A stretch of 32,000 nucleotides of DNA from an uncultured Actinomycetota bacterium (GCA_963794785.1 CAWCFA010000012.1:609285-641284), one strand, 5' to 3'; shown: positions 3,988-31,363, counted from the first letter of the stretch. Translations and numbers: made by a program. Notes: generated by a model from the sequence alone, not told the origin.

Positions 3988-4734
3988 ATGTCCTTCGGAT
4001 CGATCGCCGAGAACTATAACGAGTTGCGACCACAGCCCCCGCGCAGCGCGGTGGACTGGCTGGTCCCGCCCGGATGCGAGGTGGCCGTCGATGTCGGCGC
4101 GGGCACCGGACTTTTCACCCGCGCACTGCTGGGCAGAGTGCGTCAGGTCATCGCCGTCGAGCCCGATGCCCGCATGCGGGAGGTGCTGTCGGCGCGTTCC
4201 CCGGGGGTCCGCGTTGTCGAGGGCCACGGCGAATCGATCCCACTACCGGATGCCGCCGCGAACGCGTTGTTCGTCTCGTCGGCGTGGCACTGGATGGATC
4301 CGACACTGGCAGTTCCGGAGATCGGGCGCGTTCTGCGGGACGGCGGTCGGTTCGGGCTGATCTGGACGAGCCGGGATCGCGAAGTGGACTGGGTGCGCGA
4401 GCTGGACCACGGACTGCGCAGCCGAGATACGTCTGAGGCGGCATCGGCGGATCGATTCCGGCGGCACCTGGACTTCGAACTCCCGGAACCCCAGATTTTC
4501 CACAACATTGCGCGGGAGACGTTCCAATTCTCACGCACCATGACGGTCGACAACGTCGTCGCCATGCTGGGCACCTACAGCAGGGCCATCATCGCGTCTC
4601 CGGATGACCGGGCGCAGGCACAAGCTGCGGCCCGGGTTGCGTTGGAGGCGCGTTTTCCCGGGGCCCACTCGATTGACATCCCCATGCGGGCGTCGTGTTG
4701 GCGCGCCGACCGGATCGCCCGCCGCGACCATTAG
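3988..4734 (+). CDS. Class I SAM-dependent methyltransferase
   Basis: Track ORF 3955..4734. I prefer the ATG at 3988 (MSFGSIAENYNELRP). Motif I VAVDVGAGTGLFT, then DAAANALFVSSAWHWMD and LRDGGRFGLIW, fit the Methyltransf_11/25 pattern. Confidence 0.75.
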   Translation: MSFGSIAENYNELRPQPPRSAVDWLVPPGCEVAVDVGAGTGLFTRALLGRVRQVIAVEPDARMREVLSARSPGVRVVEGHGESIPLPDAAANALFVSSAWHWMDPTLAVPEIGRVLRDGGRFGLIWTSRDREVDWVRELDHGLRSRDTSEAASADRFRRHLDFELPEPQIFHNIARETFQFSRTMTVDNVVAMLGTYSRAIIASPDDRAQAQAAARVALEARFPGAHSIDIPMRASCWRADRIARRDH

Positions 4735-4796
4735 GGCCGCCGTCACCGATCAGCCAGTCGGGACCAGCCCCAGCGACTCGACGAGATCGATCATTT

Positions 4797-6020
4797 TCAT
4801 TCGCCGAACCCACCCGGGCGTCCGGCCCGGGCTGCTGCCTCTACAAGATCGGTTGCGCTGGAAACACTTTGGGCAGCGTTGGTCATCTGCCCGGCCACCT
4901 CGCGGGCACGGTCAACCCGCTCCGGTGTGAGGATGGAGCGTAGGTCGGCCACCAGCGAATCCAGCGTGCTGGCGAAAAAGGACCGCCCTGAGCCGATTTC
5001 CAGTCGTGTCACACCATCTGCCCACATCGGCTGATCGAGCCAGAACCACAGGATCAATGTCGGGATTCCAGCCCGCATGCCTGCGGCGGTCGCGCCGGCG
5101 CCCCCGTGGTGGACCGCGGCGCGGCAGGCGGGCAGGATGGCCGCGTGGTTGACCTCGGCCGCCACCTTCACATGTTCGGAAGGCGGGACATCGGTGAAAT
5201 CATTCGGGCCGCTGCAAATCAATGCGCGCACGCCCAACTTCGCACAGGCCGCGCTGATCACGGCCACAGTCTCAGCGGGAGAATTGATCGGCGTGCTTCC
5301 GAAGCCGAAGTAGATAGGCGGCGTTCCCTCAGAGATCCACGACAACACCTCGTCGTCGGCATCGGTCGGTAACTCGAGCGTCAGCGCGCCAACGAAAGGC
5401 CCGCAACAGTTTGCTGGCCCGTCTGGCCCGTCCGATTCCACCCATTCTGCGGCGGGACCGGGCAAACAAAGCTCGTCGTAGGCCTGGATTTCCAGCGTTG
5501 TCCAGGGGCGGCCGGTGGCGCCGGGCAAACCTAGCGCATCGCGTTGCGCGTGATCCGTATCCTTCGCGACGCTCAGAGCCAGCTTCCCGTCCGTCCAGAT
5601 CCGCGAGGGGAAGGGGTGCAACGCAACCAGCGGGATGTCGTAATACTCGGCAACGTTGGCCGCCACCCCCTGCTCATTGAAGCCAACCACTAACAGGTCG
5701 GCCCCACTCGCCAATTCGGTCAGCGTTGCGCTCTTCTCCGCCTTGACCTTGTTCACGCGCTCAACAACGTCCGTTAACAAGCCGGCCGGATTCCGCATCT
5801 TCGCCTGCATATCGAGGATCACATCCGTGGCCGAGTTCATCTGCTCACGCGTGTCCGGGCCGTAGGCGACGGCTGAAAGCCCAGCCGCCTCAACGAAGGC
5901 AAGCATGTTGGGCGGCGCCGCCATGCTCACGTCGTGACCGCGACGGACGAGCTCCCGACCGACGACGGCGCAGGGCTCGAGATCGCCGCGACTTCCGTAC
6001 CCGACCACCACAACTTTCAT
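4797..6020 (-). CDS. GT1-family (MGT/UDP-glycosyltransferase-like) glycosyltransferase, paralogue 2
   Basis: 407 aa. Contains MKVVVVGYGSRGDLEPCAVVGRELVRRGHDV and C-terminal VHHGGAGATAAGMRAGIPTLILWFWLDQPMWA, the GT1 nucleotide-sugar motif. It resembles mycobacterial Rv1524/Rv1526c and Gtf-type enzymes. Its ATG overlaps the upstream gene's stop (ATGA at 6018-6022). Confidence 0.85.
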   Translation of the reverse strand: MKVVVVGYGSRGDLEPCAVVGRELVRRGHDVSMAAPPNMLAFVEAAGLSAVAYGPDTREQMNSATDVILDMQAKMRNPAGLLTDVVERVNKVKAEKSATLTELASGADLLVVGFNEQGVAANVAEYYDIPLVALHPFPSRIWTDGKLALSVAKDTDHAQRDALGLPGATGRPWTTLEIQAYDELCLPGPAAEWVESDGPDGPANCCGPFVGALTLELPTDADDEVLSWISEGTPPIYFGFGSTPINSPAETVAVISAACAKLGVRALICSGPNDFTDVPPSEHVKVAAEVNHAAILPACRAAVHHGGAGATAAGMRAGIPTLILWFWLDQPMWADGVTRLEIGSGRSFFASTLDSLVADLRSILTPERVDRAREVAGQMTNAAQSVSSATDLVEAAARAGRPGGFGE

Positions 6021-21533: not shown

Positions 21534-22214
21534 CGTTCCACCCTGGCGTCGGATACGTGTCCTAGTGTGCGATGGCCGCCCGGCACGCGCACGCTCCAGT
21601 GTGTGCTGTGGCCGCCCACGGTGTCGTCTTCGTCGGGAGAGACTAAAACCTCATGGCCTGTAGTTGTCGCGAAGCTGGACGCGAGAGCAGCTGTTTCGCC
21701 GCGTGGTGGCTTACCGGTATCCCGCCATATTCCGGTTGGTCGTGTTCCACCAGTGCAGCGCTCCGGTGTCGAGGGGCGCGACTGCGCTCGCGGGCTTCCG
21801 GGTTGCGGAGTTGTGGTTGCAGCCGTTCTGTTGGTGCGAGATCGGTCGCGCCGCTGTGGAGGTTTGCTGATGCCAGTTAGGGGAGTGGTCGAATTGCTCG
21901 TGCGGTGTGACCGATTCAGGCGAACAGAAGCATAGGTATTGCCCACACGGCTACTGGATCTTGAAGTGACAGTGGACCGCTGAGTCCCCGCGTGCCAACG
22001 GCATCACCGCTTACGGTCCCGTCGCAGAGGAGTCTGAACAGCGCTGCGCCTAACGGGGCTTCCGCGGTGCCGGGGATCCGCGACTACATCGCTGGACCGC
22101 CCGATCTGCCGATCGGGCATCGCGACAAGGTGGTGATCGCCAGGCCGCCAACGGCTGGAAAGCGAGAACATTGACGCATGACGGGGCTAGGCGGAAACCG
22201 CTCTAGCCCGCATT

Positions 22215-22244
22215 TTGCATAACTCGTAAGGTATATTCTTAGTT
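22215..22244 (+). promoter_or_regulatory. Candidate leaderless promoter of the MNT gene: TTGCATAACTCGTAAGG (half-site-like) followed by TATATT 7 nt before the ATG
   Basis: TATATT at 22232-22237 with the A of the ATG at 22245. This spacing fits mycobacterial leaderless transcripts. AACTCG resembles the AACTCGCA half-site repeated downstream. Confidence 0.4.
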
Positions 22245-22829
22245 ATGAGAACTTCGGCATTGTTGCCGATCCTGCGGTCGCAGCTGCAGGGTGGGCTTCT
22301 TGCGCAGTTGTATCTGCACCCGGATGCCGAATACAGCCTCACCGAGGTGGCCAAGTACCTCGGGGCGAGCGTCACCGCGGTGCACCACGAGGTTGAGCGC
22401 TTGGTTGCCGCCGGACTCGTCGACGAGCGGCGGTACGGCAATATGCGACTGATCAGGGCCGCGCAAAGCCGGCTGGCGCGGCCGTTGACCGAGCTGCTCG
22501 CCTTGACTTACGGGCCAATTGCGGTGCTCCCAGACGAACTCGCCGCAGTCCCAGGGATCCGCCAGGCGTACCTATTTGGTTCCTGGGCGCGGCGCTACGG
22601 CGGTGAGCCGGGACCGCCGCCTGGCGACGTCGACGTCCTCGTCGTTGGAAGCACGGACCTCGACGACCTGGATGAGGCGGCCCGTCGCGTGGAGAAGATC
22701 CTGCAGCTTCCCGTGCACATCGTCCGGATCCTGCCTGAGCGGTGGGACAGCCAGGCACACGATGACGCGTTCCTCGCCGATGTGCGCAGCAAACCGCGCG
22801 TGCTTATTGCATTGCGGGACAACGAATGA
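22245..22829 (+). CDS. Winged-helix DNA-binding + minimal nucleotidyltransferase (MNT) domain protein, first gene of an MNT/HEPN-type two-gene module
   Basis: N-terminal wHTH-like SLTEVAKYLGASVTAVHHEVERLVAAGLVDERRYGN. NTase motif LFGSWARRYGG...GDVDVLVVG. ATGA overlap with the next ORF. Confidence 0.75.
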   Translation: MRTSALLPILRSQLQGGLLAQLYLHPDAEYSLTEVAKYLGASVTAVHHEVERLVAAGLVDERRYGNMRLIRAAQSRLARPLTELLALTYGPIAVLPDELAAVPGIRQAYLFGSWARRYGGEPGPPPGDVDVLVVGSTDLDDLDEAARRVEKILQLPVHIVRILPERWDSQAHDDAFLADVRSKPRVLIALRDNE

Positions 22830-23053
22830 GGTGGAATCAGGGACGCGAGAGGGTCGACTCATTGATCGCCGATACCGAAATCGAACTGGTGCACCCGGAT
22901 CGGACCGCTGCCGATCGGCTGCTCAATGAAGCCCGCGCGCACCTGAAATCGGCGGCGCAGATCGCAGACTCCGATGCGGCTGGTGCGTACACGTTGGTGT
23001 ATGACGCCGCGCGGAAGGCGTTGGCAGCGAACGGCGACGTTTACTTGACATAA
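22826..23053 (+). pseudogene. HEPN-like partner of the MNT gene, apparently 3'-truncated (75 aa; relatives as I remember them are ~130 aa)
   Basis: MRWNQGRERVDSLIADTEIELVHPDRTAADRLLNEARAHLKSAAQIADSDAAGAYTLVYDAARKALAA, then NGDVYLT*. The expected C-terminal R-x4-6-H/RN..EY region is missing. The ORF ends 25 nt before repeat unit A. Confidence 0.5.
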
Positions 23054-23077
23054 TGTCGCTTATCGGCACAAATCTAA

Positions 23078-23325
23078 TGCGAGTTGCATTAGATGCAAGG
23101 ACTCGCACCTCTGAGCGACGGCGACGTTGGCGCAGCTGACAAGCTTGGTCACCCCCTGTTCCATCCACCGGCGCCATGCCGTTCATTGACCGTCGCCGCA
23201 GTTTGAATGATTGTTGTTAGGCGACGAGGCGCTGATGCTGGTTTGCTCAGGCCCGACTGCCAAGTCCGCGGCAGCCTATACTCCGTCCGTCTGCAGCCTC
23301 CAAAAACGTCACAGTGACGAATTGT
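23078..23325 (+). repeat. Repeat unit A (~248 bp): 5' hairpin TGCGAGTTGCAT-TAG-ATGCAAGGACTCGCA, diverged interior, 3' palindrome-containing block CGTCACAGTGACGAATTGT
   Basis: The hairpin (23078-23107) has a 12-bp stem with a 3-nt bulge. The 19-mer at 23307-23325 is identical to 24762-24780. The interior aligns loosely with unit C and with the first ~65 codons of the MNT gene (e.g. GCGCAGCTGACAAGCTTGGTC vs TCGCAGCTGCAGGGTGGGCTTCTT). Confidence 0.8.
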
Positions 23326-23696
23326 TATGCCCCGCTGGGTCATTGACCGCTCCTGCGCATTCAGGAACGCGCACCGCTGCTATTCATCCGTTTCGCGACC
23401 ATCGTCGCCCAACCAGGCCTGAGCATCGCAGCCAGCACGGATGAACAGAGGCGCCTGCTTGCGGGGGCGGAATCCTACGTCAGGGCGGTGACCAAGGGAA
23501 CTTTTGGCGTCTACTGCTCCACCTGACCGATTCGGACAGTCCCGTCACCGCAACCCGCGGCTGGCGCGGATGAACCGCACGTATGGTCGACGTTTACTGG
23601 CTCTTGCCTGCGATCTGGACTGGGCGGGCTACGGCCTGGATGCACGACACCAATAAGATGATTGCCTCCGTCAGCCCGCCTCGCCGCGGGCGCAGT

Positions 23697-23745
23697 AACT
23701 CGCACCTCTCAAGCGCGCACCGATACCAGTAAACTAATGCGAGTT
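23697..23745 (+). repeat. 33-nt repeat copy B (AACTCGCACCTCTCAAGCGCGCACCGATACCAG) plus downstream complementary TGCGAGTT
   Basis: 30/33 identical to copy D. AACTCGCA (23697-23704) is the exact reverse complement of TGCGAGTT (23738-23745). Confidence 0.85.
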
Positions 23746-23777
23746 ATACTGCTTTACAATGCATTTCGTTACACCAT

Positions 23778-23806
23778 CAGCTGTTCGGCCTTTCGGGCCC
23801 AGGCTG
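23778..23806 (-). terminator. Imperfect GC-rich hairpin immediately downstream of the relE stop (no U-tract)
   Basis: CAGCTGTTCGGCCTTTCGGGCCCAGGCTG has outer CAGC/GCTG and inner GGCC/GGCC pairing. This is structural inference only. Confidence 0.3.
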
Positions 23807-23809
23807 CGG

Positions 23810-24073
23810 TCAACGCCTGTAAACGTCCGCGCGATGATCGAAACGCTGAATCAACACCAGTGAGTGATCCTCATCGATCCGGTACAACAGGCGGTACGGG
23901 CCGCGCCGGGCGCTATACAGCCCGGTCAGTTCACGCCGCAGCGGCTTGCCGACGCGGCGCGGGTCGTGCGCCAGCTCGCCGAACGCGAACTCAATCACGG
24001 CCGAGAGCACCCGCGGTGGCACCTTGTGCAGGTCACGCCGAGCGGTGCCGGTGAACCGAACCGTATAACCCAC
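23810..24073 (-). CDS. relE: RelE/ParE-superfamily mRNA interferase toxin
   Basis: Own start call at GTG 24073 inside track ORF 23810..24316: VGYTVRFTGTARRDLHKVPPRVLSAVIEFAFGELAHDPRRVGKPLRRELTGLYSARRGPYRLLYRIDEDHSLVLIQRFDHRADVYRR. It resembles M. tuberculosis RelE (Rv1246c) as remembered. Confidence 0.85.
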   Translation of the reverse strand: MGYTVRFTGTARRDLHKVPPRVLSAVIEFAFGELAHDPRRVGKPLRRELTGLYSARRGPYRLLYRIDEDHSLVLIQRFDHRADVYRR

Positions 24074-24080
24074 GGCTGCG

Positions 24081-24362
24081 TTAGTCGGCGCGCCGAGGCA
24101 CACCGAACTCGGCGCGAATTTCGTCCTCGCCGTACGTGCGCCCAGCGCCAATGTCGGCGTCGGCCTCGGCGATCGATTCCTTGATCCCGGGCTGGGAAAG
24201 CCAGTACAGCGTCTCCTGTAGCGATTCCCACTCCTCGGCGCCAACGAGCACCGCCGCCGGCGCGCCGTTCTTGGTGATCGTGATCTGATCCTGCGTTTGG
24301 GCGACCGCATCGACATACTCGTTGAGCTTGTCTTTCATCTTCGAAATCGGCATTATCCGCAT
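24081..24362 (-). CDS. relB: RelB-type (Phd/YefM-fold) antitoxin
   Basis: MPISKMKDKLNEYVDAVAQTQDQITITKNGAPAAVLVGAEEWESLQETLYWL...DEIRAEF resembles M. tuberculosis RelB/RelF. The stop lies 7 nt before the relE GTG. Confidence 0.85.
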   Translation of the reverse strand: MRIMPISKMKDKLNEYVDAVAQTQDQITITKNGAPAAVLVGAEEWESLQETLYWLSQPGIKESIAEADADIGAGRTYGEDEIRAEFGVPRRAD

Positions 24363-24373
24363 GTCACCATGTT

Positions 24374-24418
24374 AGGTCTAAATATAAGCCGGCCATAGGT
24401 CGAAATTAAGGCCTATAG
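24374..24418 (-). promoter_or_regulatory. relBE promoter/operator candidate: minus-strand TATATT plus repeated GGCCATAGG / GGCCTATAG elements (ATAGG-N13-CCTAT inverted repeat)
   Basis: Read directly in the AT-rich tract upstream of relB. Confidence 0.45.
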
Positions 24419-24488
24419 TCCTCGCGCCACTGGCCCCGAGCCATCTCGCGACGATGTGGAAACCCGGCCGCATCCGCTCCCCTGCACC

Positions 24489-24559
24489 AACTCGCACCTG
24501 TCGAGCACGCGCAGTTACCAGTTACCGCTTGCGAGTTGCATCTAGTGAAAGTGCTCGCA
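24489..24559 (+). repeat. 33-nt repeat copy C (AACTCGCACCTGTCGAGCACGCGCAGTTACCAG), then TGCGAGTTGCAT...CTCGCA hairpin (start of unit C)
   Basis: 29/33 identical to copy D. The half-sites are AACTCGCA 24489-24496, TGCGAGTT 24530-24537 and CTCGCA 24554-24559. Confidence 0.85.
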
Positions 24560-24780
24560 CCACATGATGACTGATCGATCGACGCTGCTCAGCGCGTCGT
24601 TTGGCGGTCCAGACGCCCCGGCCGAGTGGCGCATCTGTTGCCAGTACGCCGAGGTCGTCGTAGCGTTGGCAATCCCGTCGCCGGCCGCTGGCAGCGCGAC
24701 GGCGACGATGTGTTCGACCGTTGCCGCCCCTACGTCCCTCCGGCCCAGTCCGCCAATGATTCGTCACAGTGACGAATTGT
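24530..24780 (+). repeat. Repeat unit C (~251 bp): hairpin, decayed wHTH-gene head (MMTDRSTLLSASFGG...), 3' perfect palindrome TCGTCACAGTGACGA + ATTGT
   Basis: The distance from hairpin to palindrome is 232 nt, against 229 nt in unit A. ATGATGACTGATCGATCGACGCTGCTC can be compared with the MNT start ATGAGAACTTCGGCATTGTTG (S-T-L-L vs S-A-L-L with synonymous Leu codon changes). Confidence 0.8.
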
Positions 24781-24948
24781 ATTATGGCACTTAGCGATCC
24801 GCGTTTGGGTATCCTGGTCGAAACCCTGGGCTATAGCCCCCAGAGGCTGGAAGCTCACGCCCGAGCATCCGCATCCACCTACGCGCGATACGTCGCAACT
24901 CGACTTGAGTGAGGGGGTGGCTGGTTAACCAGTCGCTGGCTGGCTACG

Positions 24949-27315
24949 TCACTCGCTTTGACCCCAGAGGCGTCGCTTCTCGCCGATGACGGACCCCTGT
25001 ACCCACCAGACGACCTCGATGAGCGCAGCCGCCATCACGCCGATCAGCAGCGCCGTCGTGGTCTGCGGGACGTTGGACGGGTCGAGCACGAGTTGGTCGC
25101 GGACCAGCGGGATCGAGAAGATCGCCACGTACGCGATCGCGGAGCTCACCACCAGTCCGATGCGCCACCACTCGTACGGTCGGGCCACGACGGCGAGCAC
25201 CCACAGCGCGCCGACCAGCAACGTGATCAACGCGGACGTGGAGGCTTGAGTCTGCTGGATGATCGTCGAGGCGCGGCCCTCGTAGGCGAGCAGATACGAC
25301 GTGAACGCGGCCAGGCCAACGACCAGTCCGCTCGGCAGCGCCGAGGTCATCACACGGCGGACGAAGCCGGAATGGGCGCGTTCCCGGTTGGGTGCCAGCG
25401 ATAGGACGAACGCTGGGATGCCAATCGTGAACCAGGCGGCAATCGTGACGTGGATGGGCTGGAAAGGGAATGGGAGTGGATCGGTACCGAAAAGCTTGGC
25501 CGCCAGGCCCGCTAGGCCGACCAGCACCGCGAGCAGTACCGAGTACACCGTCTTGGTGAGGAAGAGGTTCGAGACCCGTTCGATGTTGCCGATCACCCGC
25601 CTGCCCTCGTCCACGACGTAGGGCAGCGTCGCGAACCTGTTGTCCAACAATACGATCTGCGCGACCGCGCGGGATGCCGAGCTGCCCGACCCCATGGCGA
25701 CCCCGATGTCGGCGTCCTTGAGGGCCAGCACGTCGTTGACTCCATCGCCCGTCATCGCCACGGTGTGACCTCGGGACTGCAGCGCAAGCACCATCGCCCG
25801 CTTCTGGTCGGGACGCACCCGGCCGAACGTCGTGTACTTTTCGAGCGTGTCCGCCAGGTGCTCGGGCTCGTCGGGCAGTTGGCGCGCATCGATGGTCTCG
25901 CCGTGCAGGCCGAGGGTGGCCGCCACCGCGCCGACCGAGAGAGCGTTGTCGCCCGACATCACCTTCACCGTCACGTTCTGGGCGGCGAAGTAGTCGAGCG
26001 TCTCCCTGGCGTCGGGACGGACGCGCTGCTCGAGGACGACGAGCGCCACCGGTGTGACGGTGCCTGGCGCTCCTGGGGCGTCCACGGACTCGTCGGAGGA
26101 GCCCAGCAGCAGGACGCGCATTCCCTGCGCGCCAATCCGCTCGGCCTCCTCGGCGTCCGACGACGTGGGGTCGAGCAGTACGTCTGGTGCGCCGATCACC
26201 CAGTTTCCGTTGTCGCCGTATGACATTCCGCTCCACTTGGTCGCCGACTTGAACGGCGCGCTCGCGGTCGACGTCCATCCGGGTGGCTCCCCGTACGCCT
26301 CGCGGATGGCGCGCATGCTGGCGTTCGGGCGGTCGTCGTCGGCGGCGAGGGAGGCCAGGGCGTTCGCGGCGTCGGCGTCGGTCAGCGCCTTGAGCTCGCT
26401 GAGCCGCATGCCGTTCTCGGTCAGTGTCCCGGTCTTGTCGGCGCACACCACGTCGACCCTGGCGAGCCCTTCGATGGCGGCTAGGTCCTGTACCAGGCAC
26501 TGACGCTTGCCGAGGCGGACCACCCCGACGGCGAACGCGAGCGACGTCATCAGCACCAGGCCCTCGGGCACCATCGGCACCAGTGCGCCGACCATGCGCA
26601 GCACCGACTCCCGCCACCCGACGTCGGTGGTGAACAGCTGCGTATAGATGGTGAGCAGGCCTGCGGGGATCAGGAGATAGGTGATGACCCGCAGAATGGT
26701 GTTGATGCCGTTGCGCAGTTCGGACTTCGCTAGCGTGAACTTGCTCGCCTCTGCGGCGAGTTGGGCGGCGTAGGCCTCGCGGCCCACCCTGGTCGCGCGG
26801 TAGGCCCCGCTGCCCGCGACGACGAAGCTGCCCGACCTCACCTCGTCACCCGCGTCCTTGGCCATCGGGTCGGCCTCGCCGGTGAGGAGTGACTCGTCGA
26901 CCTCGAGGTTGTTCCCCTCGACGACGTCGCCGTCGACGACGATCTGGTCACCGGGCCCCAGCTCGATGACGTCGCCGAGCACGACCTCGCTGGGTGGCCG
27001 CGCCCCGGTCCCGGACTGTCTGCGCACCACGGGTTTCGCTTGCCCCACGATGGCGAGCTTGTCCAGCGTTTGCTTGGCGCGCAGTTCTTGGATGATGCCG
27101 ATCGCACTGTTGGCGACGATGAGAATGCCGAAGAGCCCGTTGATGATCGATCCGGTGGAGAGCACGATGACCAGGAGGATGCCGAGTATTGCGTTGATTC
27201 TGGTGAAGACATTGGCGCGAACGATGTCCTCCACGCTGCGCGCGGCACTGCTGGGCACGTCATTGGTCTTGCCCTCGGCGATGCGTTGCGCGACGTCGGC
27301 GTCGGACAGGCCCAT
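24949..27315 (-). CDS. ctpE: P2-type cation-transporting P-type ATPase, CtpE-like (calcium transporter family in mycobacteria)
   Basis: I prefer the ATG at 27315 ([21 protein letters not shown]...), giving 788 aa. Contains [60 protein letters not shown]. It closely resembles remembered M. tuberculosis CtpE (Rv0908). The track ORF's 60-aa N-terminal extension overlaps the USP gene. Confidence 0.85.
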
Positions 27316-31274: not shown

Positions 31275-31307
31275 AACTCGCACCTCTCGAGCACGCACCG
31301 CTACCAG
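31275..31307 (+). repeat. 33-nt repeat copy D (AACTCGCACCTCTCGAGCACGCACCGCTACCAG)
   Basis: Same orientation as copies B and C. It lies between the methyltransferase stop (31364) and the ATPase start (30870). Confidence 0.85.
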
Positions 31308-31363
31308 CTTTTTCATCGAGGTCATCACTCCCTGGCAAGGGGGCGCGCCGTATGTCGCATGAC

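Follow-up and report, generated by a model that had tools for sequence, protein, structure and literature searches.

A 32,000-nucleotide stretch of DNA from an uncultured Actinomycetota bacterium (GCA_963794785.1 CAWCFA010000012.1:609285-641284), here called the window, contains, judging by sequence, a chromosomal dif site with a series of short, co-oriented repeats and small genes lined up beside its XerC arm. Three conserved DNA modules recur in this series: a hairpin (H) and a palindrome (PAL), which delimit a unit that we call DAU, and a 48-nt junction element (X). We judge it an even call that cassettes have been inserted in one orientation at a specific site, next to the XerC arm of dif, giving an integron-like one-sided array; this assessment draws on comparison of sequences among genomes, metagenomes and plasmids. 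A one-sided cassette array beside dif is apparently undescribed: nothing of the kind was found in Rfam or in the searchable literature, which was queried with the sequences of PAL and X and for integrative mobile elements exploiting Xer (IMEX) in Actinobacteria.

Judged by its layout and relatives, the site at 23043–23070 is the chromosomal dif, where XerC and XerD would resolve chromosome dimers: it matches both the 28-bp 11-6-11 layout and the clade consensus. Kono et al. 2011 give CACGCCGATAATGCACATTATGTCAAGT as the dif of Frankia alni and, in their supplement, predict TAAGCCGATAAGCGACATTATGTCAAGT for M. bovis and TCTACCGATAAGCGACATTATGTCAAGT for M. avium (PMC3025954). The reverse complement of the window site, TGTGCCGATAAGCGACATTATGTCAAGT, is identical to the M. 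bovis prediction at 26 of 28 positions; agreement with M. avium is 24/28, and the XerD arm is identical to that of F. alni at all positions (11/11). No other dif-like site occurs within the 32-kb window, which probably spans the replication terminus because it holds this one. Cumulative GC skew has a local maximum at ~23 kb, in a window that is short and noisy for this measure.

Two units, A and C, lie on the XerC side (Table 1). A first-pass annotation of this DNA had picked them out by their ends, and much of that description stands: the hairpin TGCGAGTTGCAT..CTCGCACC has copies at 23078–23109 and 24530–24561 (identity 78%), two exact copies of the 19-mer CGTCACAGTGACGAATTGT are present (23307 and 24762; none in 100 shuffles), and the start-to-start spacings from hairpin to 19-mer are 229 and 232 nt, as claimed. 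Its view that no described mycobacterial repeat family is involved also agrees with Rfam and with sequence-based literature searches, neither of which returned a match. The same annotation interpreted the units as belonging to a tandem set of three, all in one orientation and each made of an operator hairpin and the 5′ end of a winged helix-turn-helix (wHTH) MNT gene, the second and third copies having decayed while operator function or gene conversion kept their ends. ATG-led short open reading frames (ORFs) in both units and the good conservation of hairpin and 19-mer favour this idea, but we now find it scarcely credible. Local alignments of the unit interiors with the first ~220 nt of the MNT gene gave lower scores than dinucleotide shuffles do on average (z = −0.8 and −0.25), which refutes the decayed-gene-head reading by the shuffled-control comparison that the annotation itself had put forward. 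Upstream of the MNT gene there is no hairpin-like sequence: the supposed third copy, TTGCATAACTCGTAAGG at 22215, has more than three mismatches to the hairpin 12-mer on both strands, and looser matches (≤3 mismatches) are at chance level (20 observed, 28 expected). Moreover, the units are present in many genomes that lack this MNT gene and have no neighbour gene in common. The decisive context is adjacency to dif, together with the conservation of these modules among Mycobacteriales and on plasmids of actinobacteria; dif itself, the two 48-nt X elements around relBE and a truncated further X had gone unnoticed in the first-pass annotation. The conserved ends are functional-looking modules and not chance, and a recombination site was among the roles already offered for them; what falls is their attribution to decayed wHTH gene heads.

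On alignment, units A and C are two copies of DAU, which directly follows the XerC arm in many Mycobacteriales. DAU is one conserved element of ~300 nt, apparently non-coding, whose blocks in the aligned genome and metagenome units run in the order H, CCCTTGACGATTGG, GATCTGAGCA.., ..TGCATCnGTTGTGCATAC.., GGTTCAATCACTTAATGAATGATTCGGGTGTTAGGTGAAACCTTGAGC, TCGACCGCCC..CTCTCC, PAL and cTGTGGCGCAGGGCTATTG. The element is well kept in loci L103, L115, L169 and L023 and degenerate in both window units. Unit A has the block GAATGATT..GTTAGGCGA in common with other copies and is 79% identical to L008 over 23114–23348, while unit C is homologous to the dif-adjacent units of L021 (76% over 24527–24662) and L013. 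The loose alignment of the two interiors reported by the first-pass annotation was not confirmed by direct comparison: a non-collinear 15-mer accounts for the marginal score (z = 2.6), and the relationship emerges only through intermediates in other genomes (L021, L013, L023 and L008 in the alignment), because each window unit retains different DAU blocks. What follows the XerC arm is conserved family by family. H follows dif in L004, L013, L021, L022 and L023 as well, and starts 7–11 nt past the XerC arm in at least eight chromosomal loci and two plasmids, with one orientation throughout; in group II, which makes up about half of the dif loci, another sequence stands beside dif instead.

It is very unlikely that DAU is itself a gene, whether a ~300-nt non-coding RNA running from H to PAL or a small basic protein encoded on the reverse strand and ending in the linker before dif or X, perhaps modulating Xer in the manner of XafT of TLC-phi. 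Conserved blocks do extend over the whole unit, a conserved 14-bp hairpin is predicted in the block TCAATCACTTAATG..GTTAGGTGA..TTGA, most copies show ..NxQGVRALSS(N/D)(A/V)TR.. in the reverse frame across H, and codon-by-codon reading of reverse frames suggests some synonymous differences; two group II units (L003 and L005) also have a common basic ORF of 38–42 aa (tblastn E = 6e-13). Against this, the consensus sequence folds only weakly (−26.6 kcal/mol for 410 columns), the covariation term is unfavourable (+0.97), several copies have stops and indels in frame with inconsistent start codons, the window copies are the most degenerate, and Rfam offers no match. The whole window is without an Rfam 15 match at gathering thresholds, and at E ≤ 5 the region 22900–24950 gave only chance-level matches, all of them away from H, X and PAL. 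Phage records searched by BLAST with unit A gave no match either.

Some coding-like features of these units may be recorded in their own right. The reverse strand over H and the next block (e.g. window 24522–24767, −) reads ..N(R/H)Q(G/V)VRALSS(N/D)(A/V)TR.. in most copies, with a stop in the linker before dif or X in many. The basic ORF of the two Mycobacterium species that lack H (L003 4831–4941 and L005 1929–2054, dif-oriented) is very basic, reads ..KRRG..AKDPVAV(K/R)RRIGY.. and lies in the dif–PAL interval; a small basic ORF between dif and PAL was rejected as a general feature, its conservation being confined to these two loci. In the window, a 42-aa ORF (MALSDPRLGILVETLGYSPQRLEAHARASASTYARYVATRLE, 24785–24912) without a Pfam match begins 4 nt past PAL_C, and an ATG or GTG likewise stands 1–5 nt after PAL in several other loci.

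PAL is a 25-bp palindrome, ACAATTCGTCAC-W-GTGACGAATTGT, perfect in L019, and the 19-mer is its better-conserved half. The 13-bp core is invariant across 40 copies and the right extension AATTGT is conserved in sequence, the left one weakly; covariation analysis gave no pairing signal beyond ±11 in the symmetric register. Given this invariant core, asymmetric extension and lack of outer pairing, PAL looks like an oriented protein or recombination site and not like a hairpin, and the same lack of pairing led us to drop the idea of a long covarying hairpin (attC-, REP- or terminator-like) with PAL at its tip. Searched for in 185,579 species genomes, the exact 19-mer was found at 23 loci, one in each of 23 assemblies (Mycobacterium, Mycolicibacterium, Mycolicibacter, Nocardia, Rhodococcus, actinobacterial metagenome-assembled genomes and one Rhizobium, the last taken as a chance match). 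In 13 of 25 copies the 19-mer has a second conserved motif, ACTTGACATAATGTNGCTTATCGGCA, 249–357 nt upstream; it corresponds to dif (247–357 nt upstream when located as the dif site) and starts at 23043 in the window. In 19 of 27 dif loci from Mycobacterium, Nocardia and soil metagenomes the first PAL lies 225–333 nt from dif on the XerC side. Two other explanations of PAL were set aside: a common flanking gene, no protein family being shared across the loci, and a phage origin, since the 48 viral-contig matches belong to unrelated, redundant families, many of low GC, and have neither the AATTGT extension nor a dif nearby.

The third module emerged from a 54-nt direct repeat (family D1; 23692–23745 and 24484–24537, 76% identity) that the first-pass annotation had merged into its hairpin. 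It is a separate repeat, and its 48-nt core is X. X3 stands in the same position relative to H as dif does in unit A, and the window copies of X lie +0.65, +1.45 and +8.2 kb from dif, with none in the 23 kb of the other side. Metagenomes were scanned with the pattern ACTCGCACCT-N26-34-TGCGAGTT, which returned at least 120 matches, a raw count that alone may be of chance order; they represent at least 73 non-redundant loci. Among the matches listed, 79 of 130 copies are exactly 48 nt long, with the consensus ACTCGCACCTsTtGAaCACGCACCgTTACCAGtTAACTnnTGCGAGTT and conserved flanks (~90 nt in all); PAL is present in 20 of the 73 loci listed, and a bona fide dif in seven (mean locus length 4 kb), co-oriented with X every time (7/7) and with X on its XerC side in 6/7. 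Several contigs carry two or three co-oriented copies, 0.6–3.8 kb apart, separated by genes for SnoaL, SRPBCC, VOC, RibD-like, alpha/beta-hydrolase and P450 proteins. X ends in an 8-bp inverted repeat (AACTCGCA/TGCGAGTT, with AAC..GTT) around an interior of 32 nt that is conserved in sequence and largely unpaired; judged by eye, it does not fit the attC pattern of RYYYAAC/GTTRRRY R boxes plus a long imperfect hairpin.

The surroundings of X have regularities of their own. Its flanks (L077, L162 and others) usually carry CCACTCCCCTACGCAGGA before X, the reverse strand of which, AGGGGAG, resembles a ribosome-binding site, and either H or GCATTGTGCYACAAnnnnnTTC follows. X also holds an off-centre perfect palindrome, CAGTTAACTG. 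The truncated window copy at 31275–31310 sits in a low-GC intergenic gap with the usual C-rich block before it.

DAU is preceded by either dif or X, at an equal distance in both cases. The two kinds of upstream sequence diverge at the outer edge of the XerC arm, where L115 has TTATCGG followed by CAGTTAAAGGGTGCGAGTT and the X consensus has ..CCGTTAC followed by CAGTTAACTGCTGCGAGTT, these crossover coordinates being a comparison between different species; past the edge, both continue with CAGTTAA.. (after TTATCGG in the L115 dif, after ..GTTAC in X). The window accordingly reads, in order, dif, DAU_A plus ~370 nt, X2, relBE, X3, DAU_C and a backbone ATPase gene. Here relBE is a type II RelE/ParE–Phd/YefM pair that matches the corresponding profiles, its genes 4 nt apart on the minus strand between X2 and X3; a GC-rich inverted repeat, CAGCTGTTCGGCCTTTCGGGCCCAGGCTG, at 23781–23809 between X2 and the ParE/RelE stop is terminator-like for this pair.

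The modules also occur on plasmids. A BLAST search of unit A against 72,556 plasmids gave two matches, each covering dif and H, and both on plasmids of Micrococcales: pTL2A of Cellulosimicrobium cellulans and the plasmid unnamed1 of a Citricoccus sp. (Table 1). In both, a dif-like core is followed by a short linker and then H; this combination may represent an undescribed type of plasmid Xer site. pTL2A carries a second palindrome ~170 nt from the core and, ~840 nt from the core and past two small ORFs, the left part of X, after which unrelated plasmid sequence begins. The second palindrome of the plasmid type, TTCGTGCATCTGATGCACGAA, was seen together with the dif-like core and H near toxin-antitoxin genes.

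These plasmid copies bear on a further explanation, in which the whole arrangement is an extended Xer site: H and PAL would be accessory-protein sites in a cer/psi-like control region that takes up ~270 bp of the XerC flank, and unit C and the X elements, as surplus copies, would be remnants of plasmids or IMEX-like elements that integrated at dif, bringing an accessory arm and toxin-antitoxin genes with them. In cer and psi it is likewise the XerC side that carries the accessory sequences. Side and length scale would fit an ArgR/ArcA/PepA region of the cer/psi type, with binding sites about 100–200 bp from the core; the near-fixed distance from dif to the first PAL, the protein-site character of PAL (invariant core, orientation, no covariation beyond ±11) and the position of H after dif-like sites and a short linker on two plasmids, where multimer resolution would be their role, point the same way. 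The inner palindrome of H, TTGCAT-TAG-ATGCAA, moreover resembles the Streptomyces ARG box AWTGCATRWWYATGCAWT (PMC4865122), but at 17 bp it is 1 nt short of the 18-bp box and it is degenerate, no longer palindromic, in most species. About half of the dif loci (group II) have other sequence in place of H, PAL and X recur many kb from dif, and the hybrid dif sites expected at element borders after Xer integration were not found. On balance we regard this explanation as unlikely, and somewhat less so than the remaining alternatives.

The modules are distributed asymmetrically about dif. When 27 non-redundant dif loci are all read in the direction XerD arm to XerC arm, 54 PAL cores and 26 X 9-mers (21 co-oriented) fall in the 118 kb of the XerC side, and five PAL cores and one X 9-mer in the 103 kb of the XerD side; these copy numbers are biased because the loci were retrieved by PAL and X patterns, which counts against the cassette reading, but the side relative to dif is free of that bias. 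The interval from dif to a common backbone gene measures 0.95 kb with two PAL in L002, 2.6 kb with three in L023 and 3.9 kb with four in L014. Single genes of unrelated function lie between PAL/X sites, close to the sites. The array has the layout of an integron: one-sided, with co-oriented sites separating mostly single-gene cassettes.

An account without any link to Xer would make X, H and PAL dispersed intergenic repeats like repetitive extragenic palindromes (REP) or miniature inverted-repeat transposable elements (MITE), selfish or structural (terminators, insulators, mRNA stabilisers) and accumulating in a gene-poor, recombination-tolerant terminus. The metagenome loci of X lie amid ordinary metabolic genes, mostly on short contigs without dif, PAL and X sit in intergenic gaps near gene ends, X has its ~90-nt conserved core, and long ordinary operons separate some sites, all of which suits such repeats. 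They would, however, leave several facts unexplained: H stands at a fixed 7–11 nt from the XerC arm, the first PAL keeps a nearly fixed distance from dif, the copies are strictly one-sided and co-oriented, and plasmids of another order have the same arrangement; nor would they account for dif in ~10% of 4-kb X loci against ~0.07% expected of random 4-kb positions, taking our estimate of ~6 Mb for the genome. We consider this account quite improbable.

Table 1. Features of the window, with the two plasmid copies of the dif-like core and H.
Feature	Position	Strand	Details
Inserted segment on XerD side	21687..23032	+	1.35 kb, absent from Mycobacterium sp. RTGN6 (L003); holds MNT and truncated HEPN genes
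wHTH-nucleotidyltransferase (MNT-type) gene	22245..22829	+	194 aa; Pfam, NCBIfam
Truncated HEPN-like partner ORF	22826..23053	+	75 aa; stop is the TAA of the dif XerD arm
Chromosomal dif (by sequence)	23043..23070	+	XerD arm ACTTGACATAA, central TGTCGC, XerC arm TTATCGGCACA
H of unit A (hairpin/palindrome)	23078..23109	+	starts 7 nt after XerC arm
Unit A, degenerate DAU copy	23078..23325	+	H, conserved blocks, PAL; alignment with DAU copies from 10–19 other loci
PAL_A	23301..23325	+	core CGTCAC-A-GTGACG plus conserved extension AATTGT; 19-mer is 23307–23325
X2 junction element	23698..23745	+	48 nt; ACTCGCACCT-N30-TGCGAGTT; 76% identical to X3
ParE/RelE-family toxin gene	23810..24076	-	Pfam ParE_toxin, E = 3e-11
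Phd/YefM-family antitoxin gene	24081..24362	-	PhdYeFM_antitox, E = 2e-22; TIGR01552, E = 9e-20
X3 junction element	24490..24537	+	48 nt; final 8 nt double as the first 8 of the unit C hairpin
Unit C, second DAU copy	24530..24780	+	H3 24530–24561, PAL_C 24756–24780; preceded by X, not dif
Truncated fourth X	31275..31310	+	left 34 nt only; AACTCGCACCTCTCGAGCACGCACCGCTACCAGC; 8.2 kb from dif, XerC side, same orientation
Cellulosimicrobium cellulans pTL2A (L073)	record 40329-41200		..ATGACATAAgggagaTTATCGGCGctcaactagTGCGAGTTGCATcaggTGCAAgAGCTCGCACC..; neighbours RelE/ParE-HigA
Citricoccus sp. plasmid unnamed1 (L074)	record 4667-4860		..ACTTGACATAAgatagcTTATCGGCGttcaactcaCGGGAGTTGCA..; neighbour RES toxin-antitoxin genes

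Under the cassette reading, cassettes would be circular, with X as their joined ends, and would insert one-way just outside the XerC arm of an Xer site—the chromosomal dif or a plasmid resolution site—so that each new insertion displaced the older cassettes outward. Toxin-antitoxin modules would be typical cargo, and DAU would itself be a small non-coding cassette. The history of the window could then be written as follows: an initial dif next to DAU_C, insertion of relBE (bounded by X2 and X3), and finally insertion of DAU_A with its 370 nt. pTL2A would represent one insertion beside a plasmid Xer site, and XerCD or an unlinked recombinase or transposase are candidates for the enzyme. In its fullest form, which we hold tentatively and think less probable than the insertion pattern as such, this would be a dif-anchored counterpart of the integron in Mycobacteriales and on some plasmids of other Actinomycetota, in which small circular X-bearing cassettes are captured one-way outside the XerC arm into a terminus-proximal array of accessory and toxin-antitoxin genes, with DAU as a non-coding leader or selfish cassette and XerCD or an unlinked recombinase at work.

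Several observations, in addition to the retrieval bias, weigh against oriented cassette insertion. Neither a recombinase nor a transposase turned up in the arrays or within 8–23 kb of dif in the window, the check having covered the ten largest ORFs within 8–23 kb of dif, the island ORFs and the cargo ORFs of other loci. No empty-site/occupied-site pair was recovered, so mobility is deduced from comparative structure alone. There was no second dif or half-dif at the unit borders in the window or in 23 genome loci, and the similarity of X and PAL to dif was not significant against shuffles (P = 0.83 and P = 0.32, respectively); as X and PAL are not dif-like and the borders carry no half-dif, crossover in the canonical Xer central region fails to explain the junctions. 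(That PAL or X might be degenerate dif or XerD-arm sites had been considered on an apparent 8/12 match, and was rejected by the same shuffles.) Three PAL-bearing loci, L006, L008 and L015, have no dif within 2.9–7.3 kb. Long ordinary operons lie between some X/PAL sites, such as MmpL plus a desaturase in L178, and fit dispersed intergenic repeats as well as they fit cassettes. Finally, a homologous SnoaL gene in two arrays has its coding sequence in common but not its flanks.

Comparison with known systems places the array outside the integron, IS1202, IMEX and dif-module families, there being no intI or transposase, no attC boxes, no TGT/ACA terminal inverted repeats and no second dif-like site. 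The resemblance to integrons lies in a one-sided array at a tyrosine-recombinase site, with dif in place of attI, in mostly single-gene segments that include toxin-antitoxin genes, in a conserved, co-oriented site of fixed length between segments (X, 48 nt, with terminal AAC...GTT inverted repeats), and in the recurrence of the right part of X at the anchor junction, as at the junction of attI and cassette. Unlike in integrons, the anchor is the chromosomal dif and no intI was found near the array; X is strongly conserved in sequence and not in structure, without the RYYYAAC/GTTRRRY boxes and the long bulged attC stem; and most X-adjacent genes in the arrays examined face the anchor. From Actinomycetota there are, to our knowledge, essentially no reports of integrons.

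IMEX (CTX-phi, VGJ-phi, TLC-phi and the gonococcal genetic island) and the pdif modules of Acinetobacter are similar in that foreign DNA, often with toxin-antitoxin genes, gathers at plasmid and chromosomal Xer sites. Theirs are flanked by dif-like sites on both sides, whereas here a single dif is present and the X/PAL borders are not dif-like. The likeness to cer and psi consists in conservation over a few hundred bp next to the core, on its XerC side, with palindromic putative protein sites, found on plasmids too; the differences are that the site here is a chromosomal dif, that the modules recur far from the core and that the resemblance to the ARG box is imperfect. Insertion sequences (IS) of the IS1202 family (ISAjo2, ISAba71), described in Acinetobacter, target dif/pdif and insert 5 bp from the XerC arm in one orientation, a precedent for XerC-side targeting that favours the cassette reading; they are 1.5 kb long and have a TnsB-like DDE transposase, terminal inverted repeats of 24–26 bp ending in TGT/ACA and 5-bp target duplications (PMC10132070). 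The array shares with them the fixed short distance and fixed orientation at the XerC arm of the chromosomal dif and of plasmid Xer sites, but no transposase ORF, TGT/ACA repeats or target duplication was found in it, and it consists of tandem arrays with a precise 48-nt junction in Actinomycetota.

On the other side of dif lies a segment of different content. In L003 the GMC-oxidoreductase backbone extends to ~36 nt from dif, whereas homology of the window to that backbone stops at 21686; ~16 nt immediately left of dif are again common to both. The intervening segment would be a separate acquisition on the XerD side, an MNT-HEPN insertion whose toxin gene was cut ~10 nt from dif. Pfam matches the MNT gene to MarR_2/HTH at residues 15–62 and to NTP_transf_2 at residues 105–167, both marginally, and NCBIfam adds an ArsR-like HTH match. 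Its partner contradicts the earlier description of an intact MNT/HEPN module: the downstream HEPN-like ORF has only 75 aa, against 92–132 aa in its homologues, diverges from them after residue 68 and has no match in Pfam or NCBIfam. The longest homologue, P0003 (132 aa), continues to RRQRHDVEY (Rx4H), so that the Rx4-6H motif of the HEPN partner is absent from the window ORF, which is cut at residue 68 before that point.

Other features of this side are noted here. The window belongs to a Mycobacterium related to Mycobacterium sp. 852014-52450_SCH5900713, with 89–90% identity in the flanking GMC-oxidoreductase gene. The sequence GGTGGCTTACCGGTA at 21704–21720, which lies ~20 nt inward of the left edge of the MNT-HEPN insertion, matches the dif central region plus XerC arm, TGTGGCTTATCGGCA, at 12 of 15 positions (21706–21720); the match may be due to chance, because equal-quality matches occur at background rate in the scanned loci. 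In L019, a WYL-type regulator gene on the XerD side ends 10 nt from dif.

If cassettes are indeed inserted in this way, the mycobacterial terminus would be a structured site of gene capture, beyond a mere variable region, and the clustering of toxin-antitoxin and accessory genes beside dif would be explained. Gene mobility at Xer sites, as in the IMEX of Vibrio, the dif modules of Acinetobacter and the IS1202 family, would then reach Actinomycetota in a form with one dif and boundaries that are not dif-like, and H, X and PAL would be three short, highly conserved DNA modules without a known binding partner. The three modules are practical markers of the dif region in draft mycobacterial genomes, and they are relevant to Xer-cise engineering of mycobacteria, which takes the minimal 28-bp dif as the whole site.

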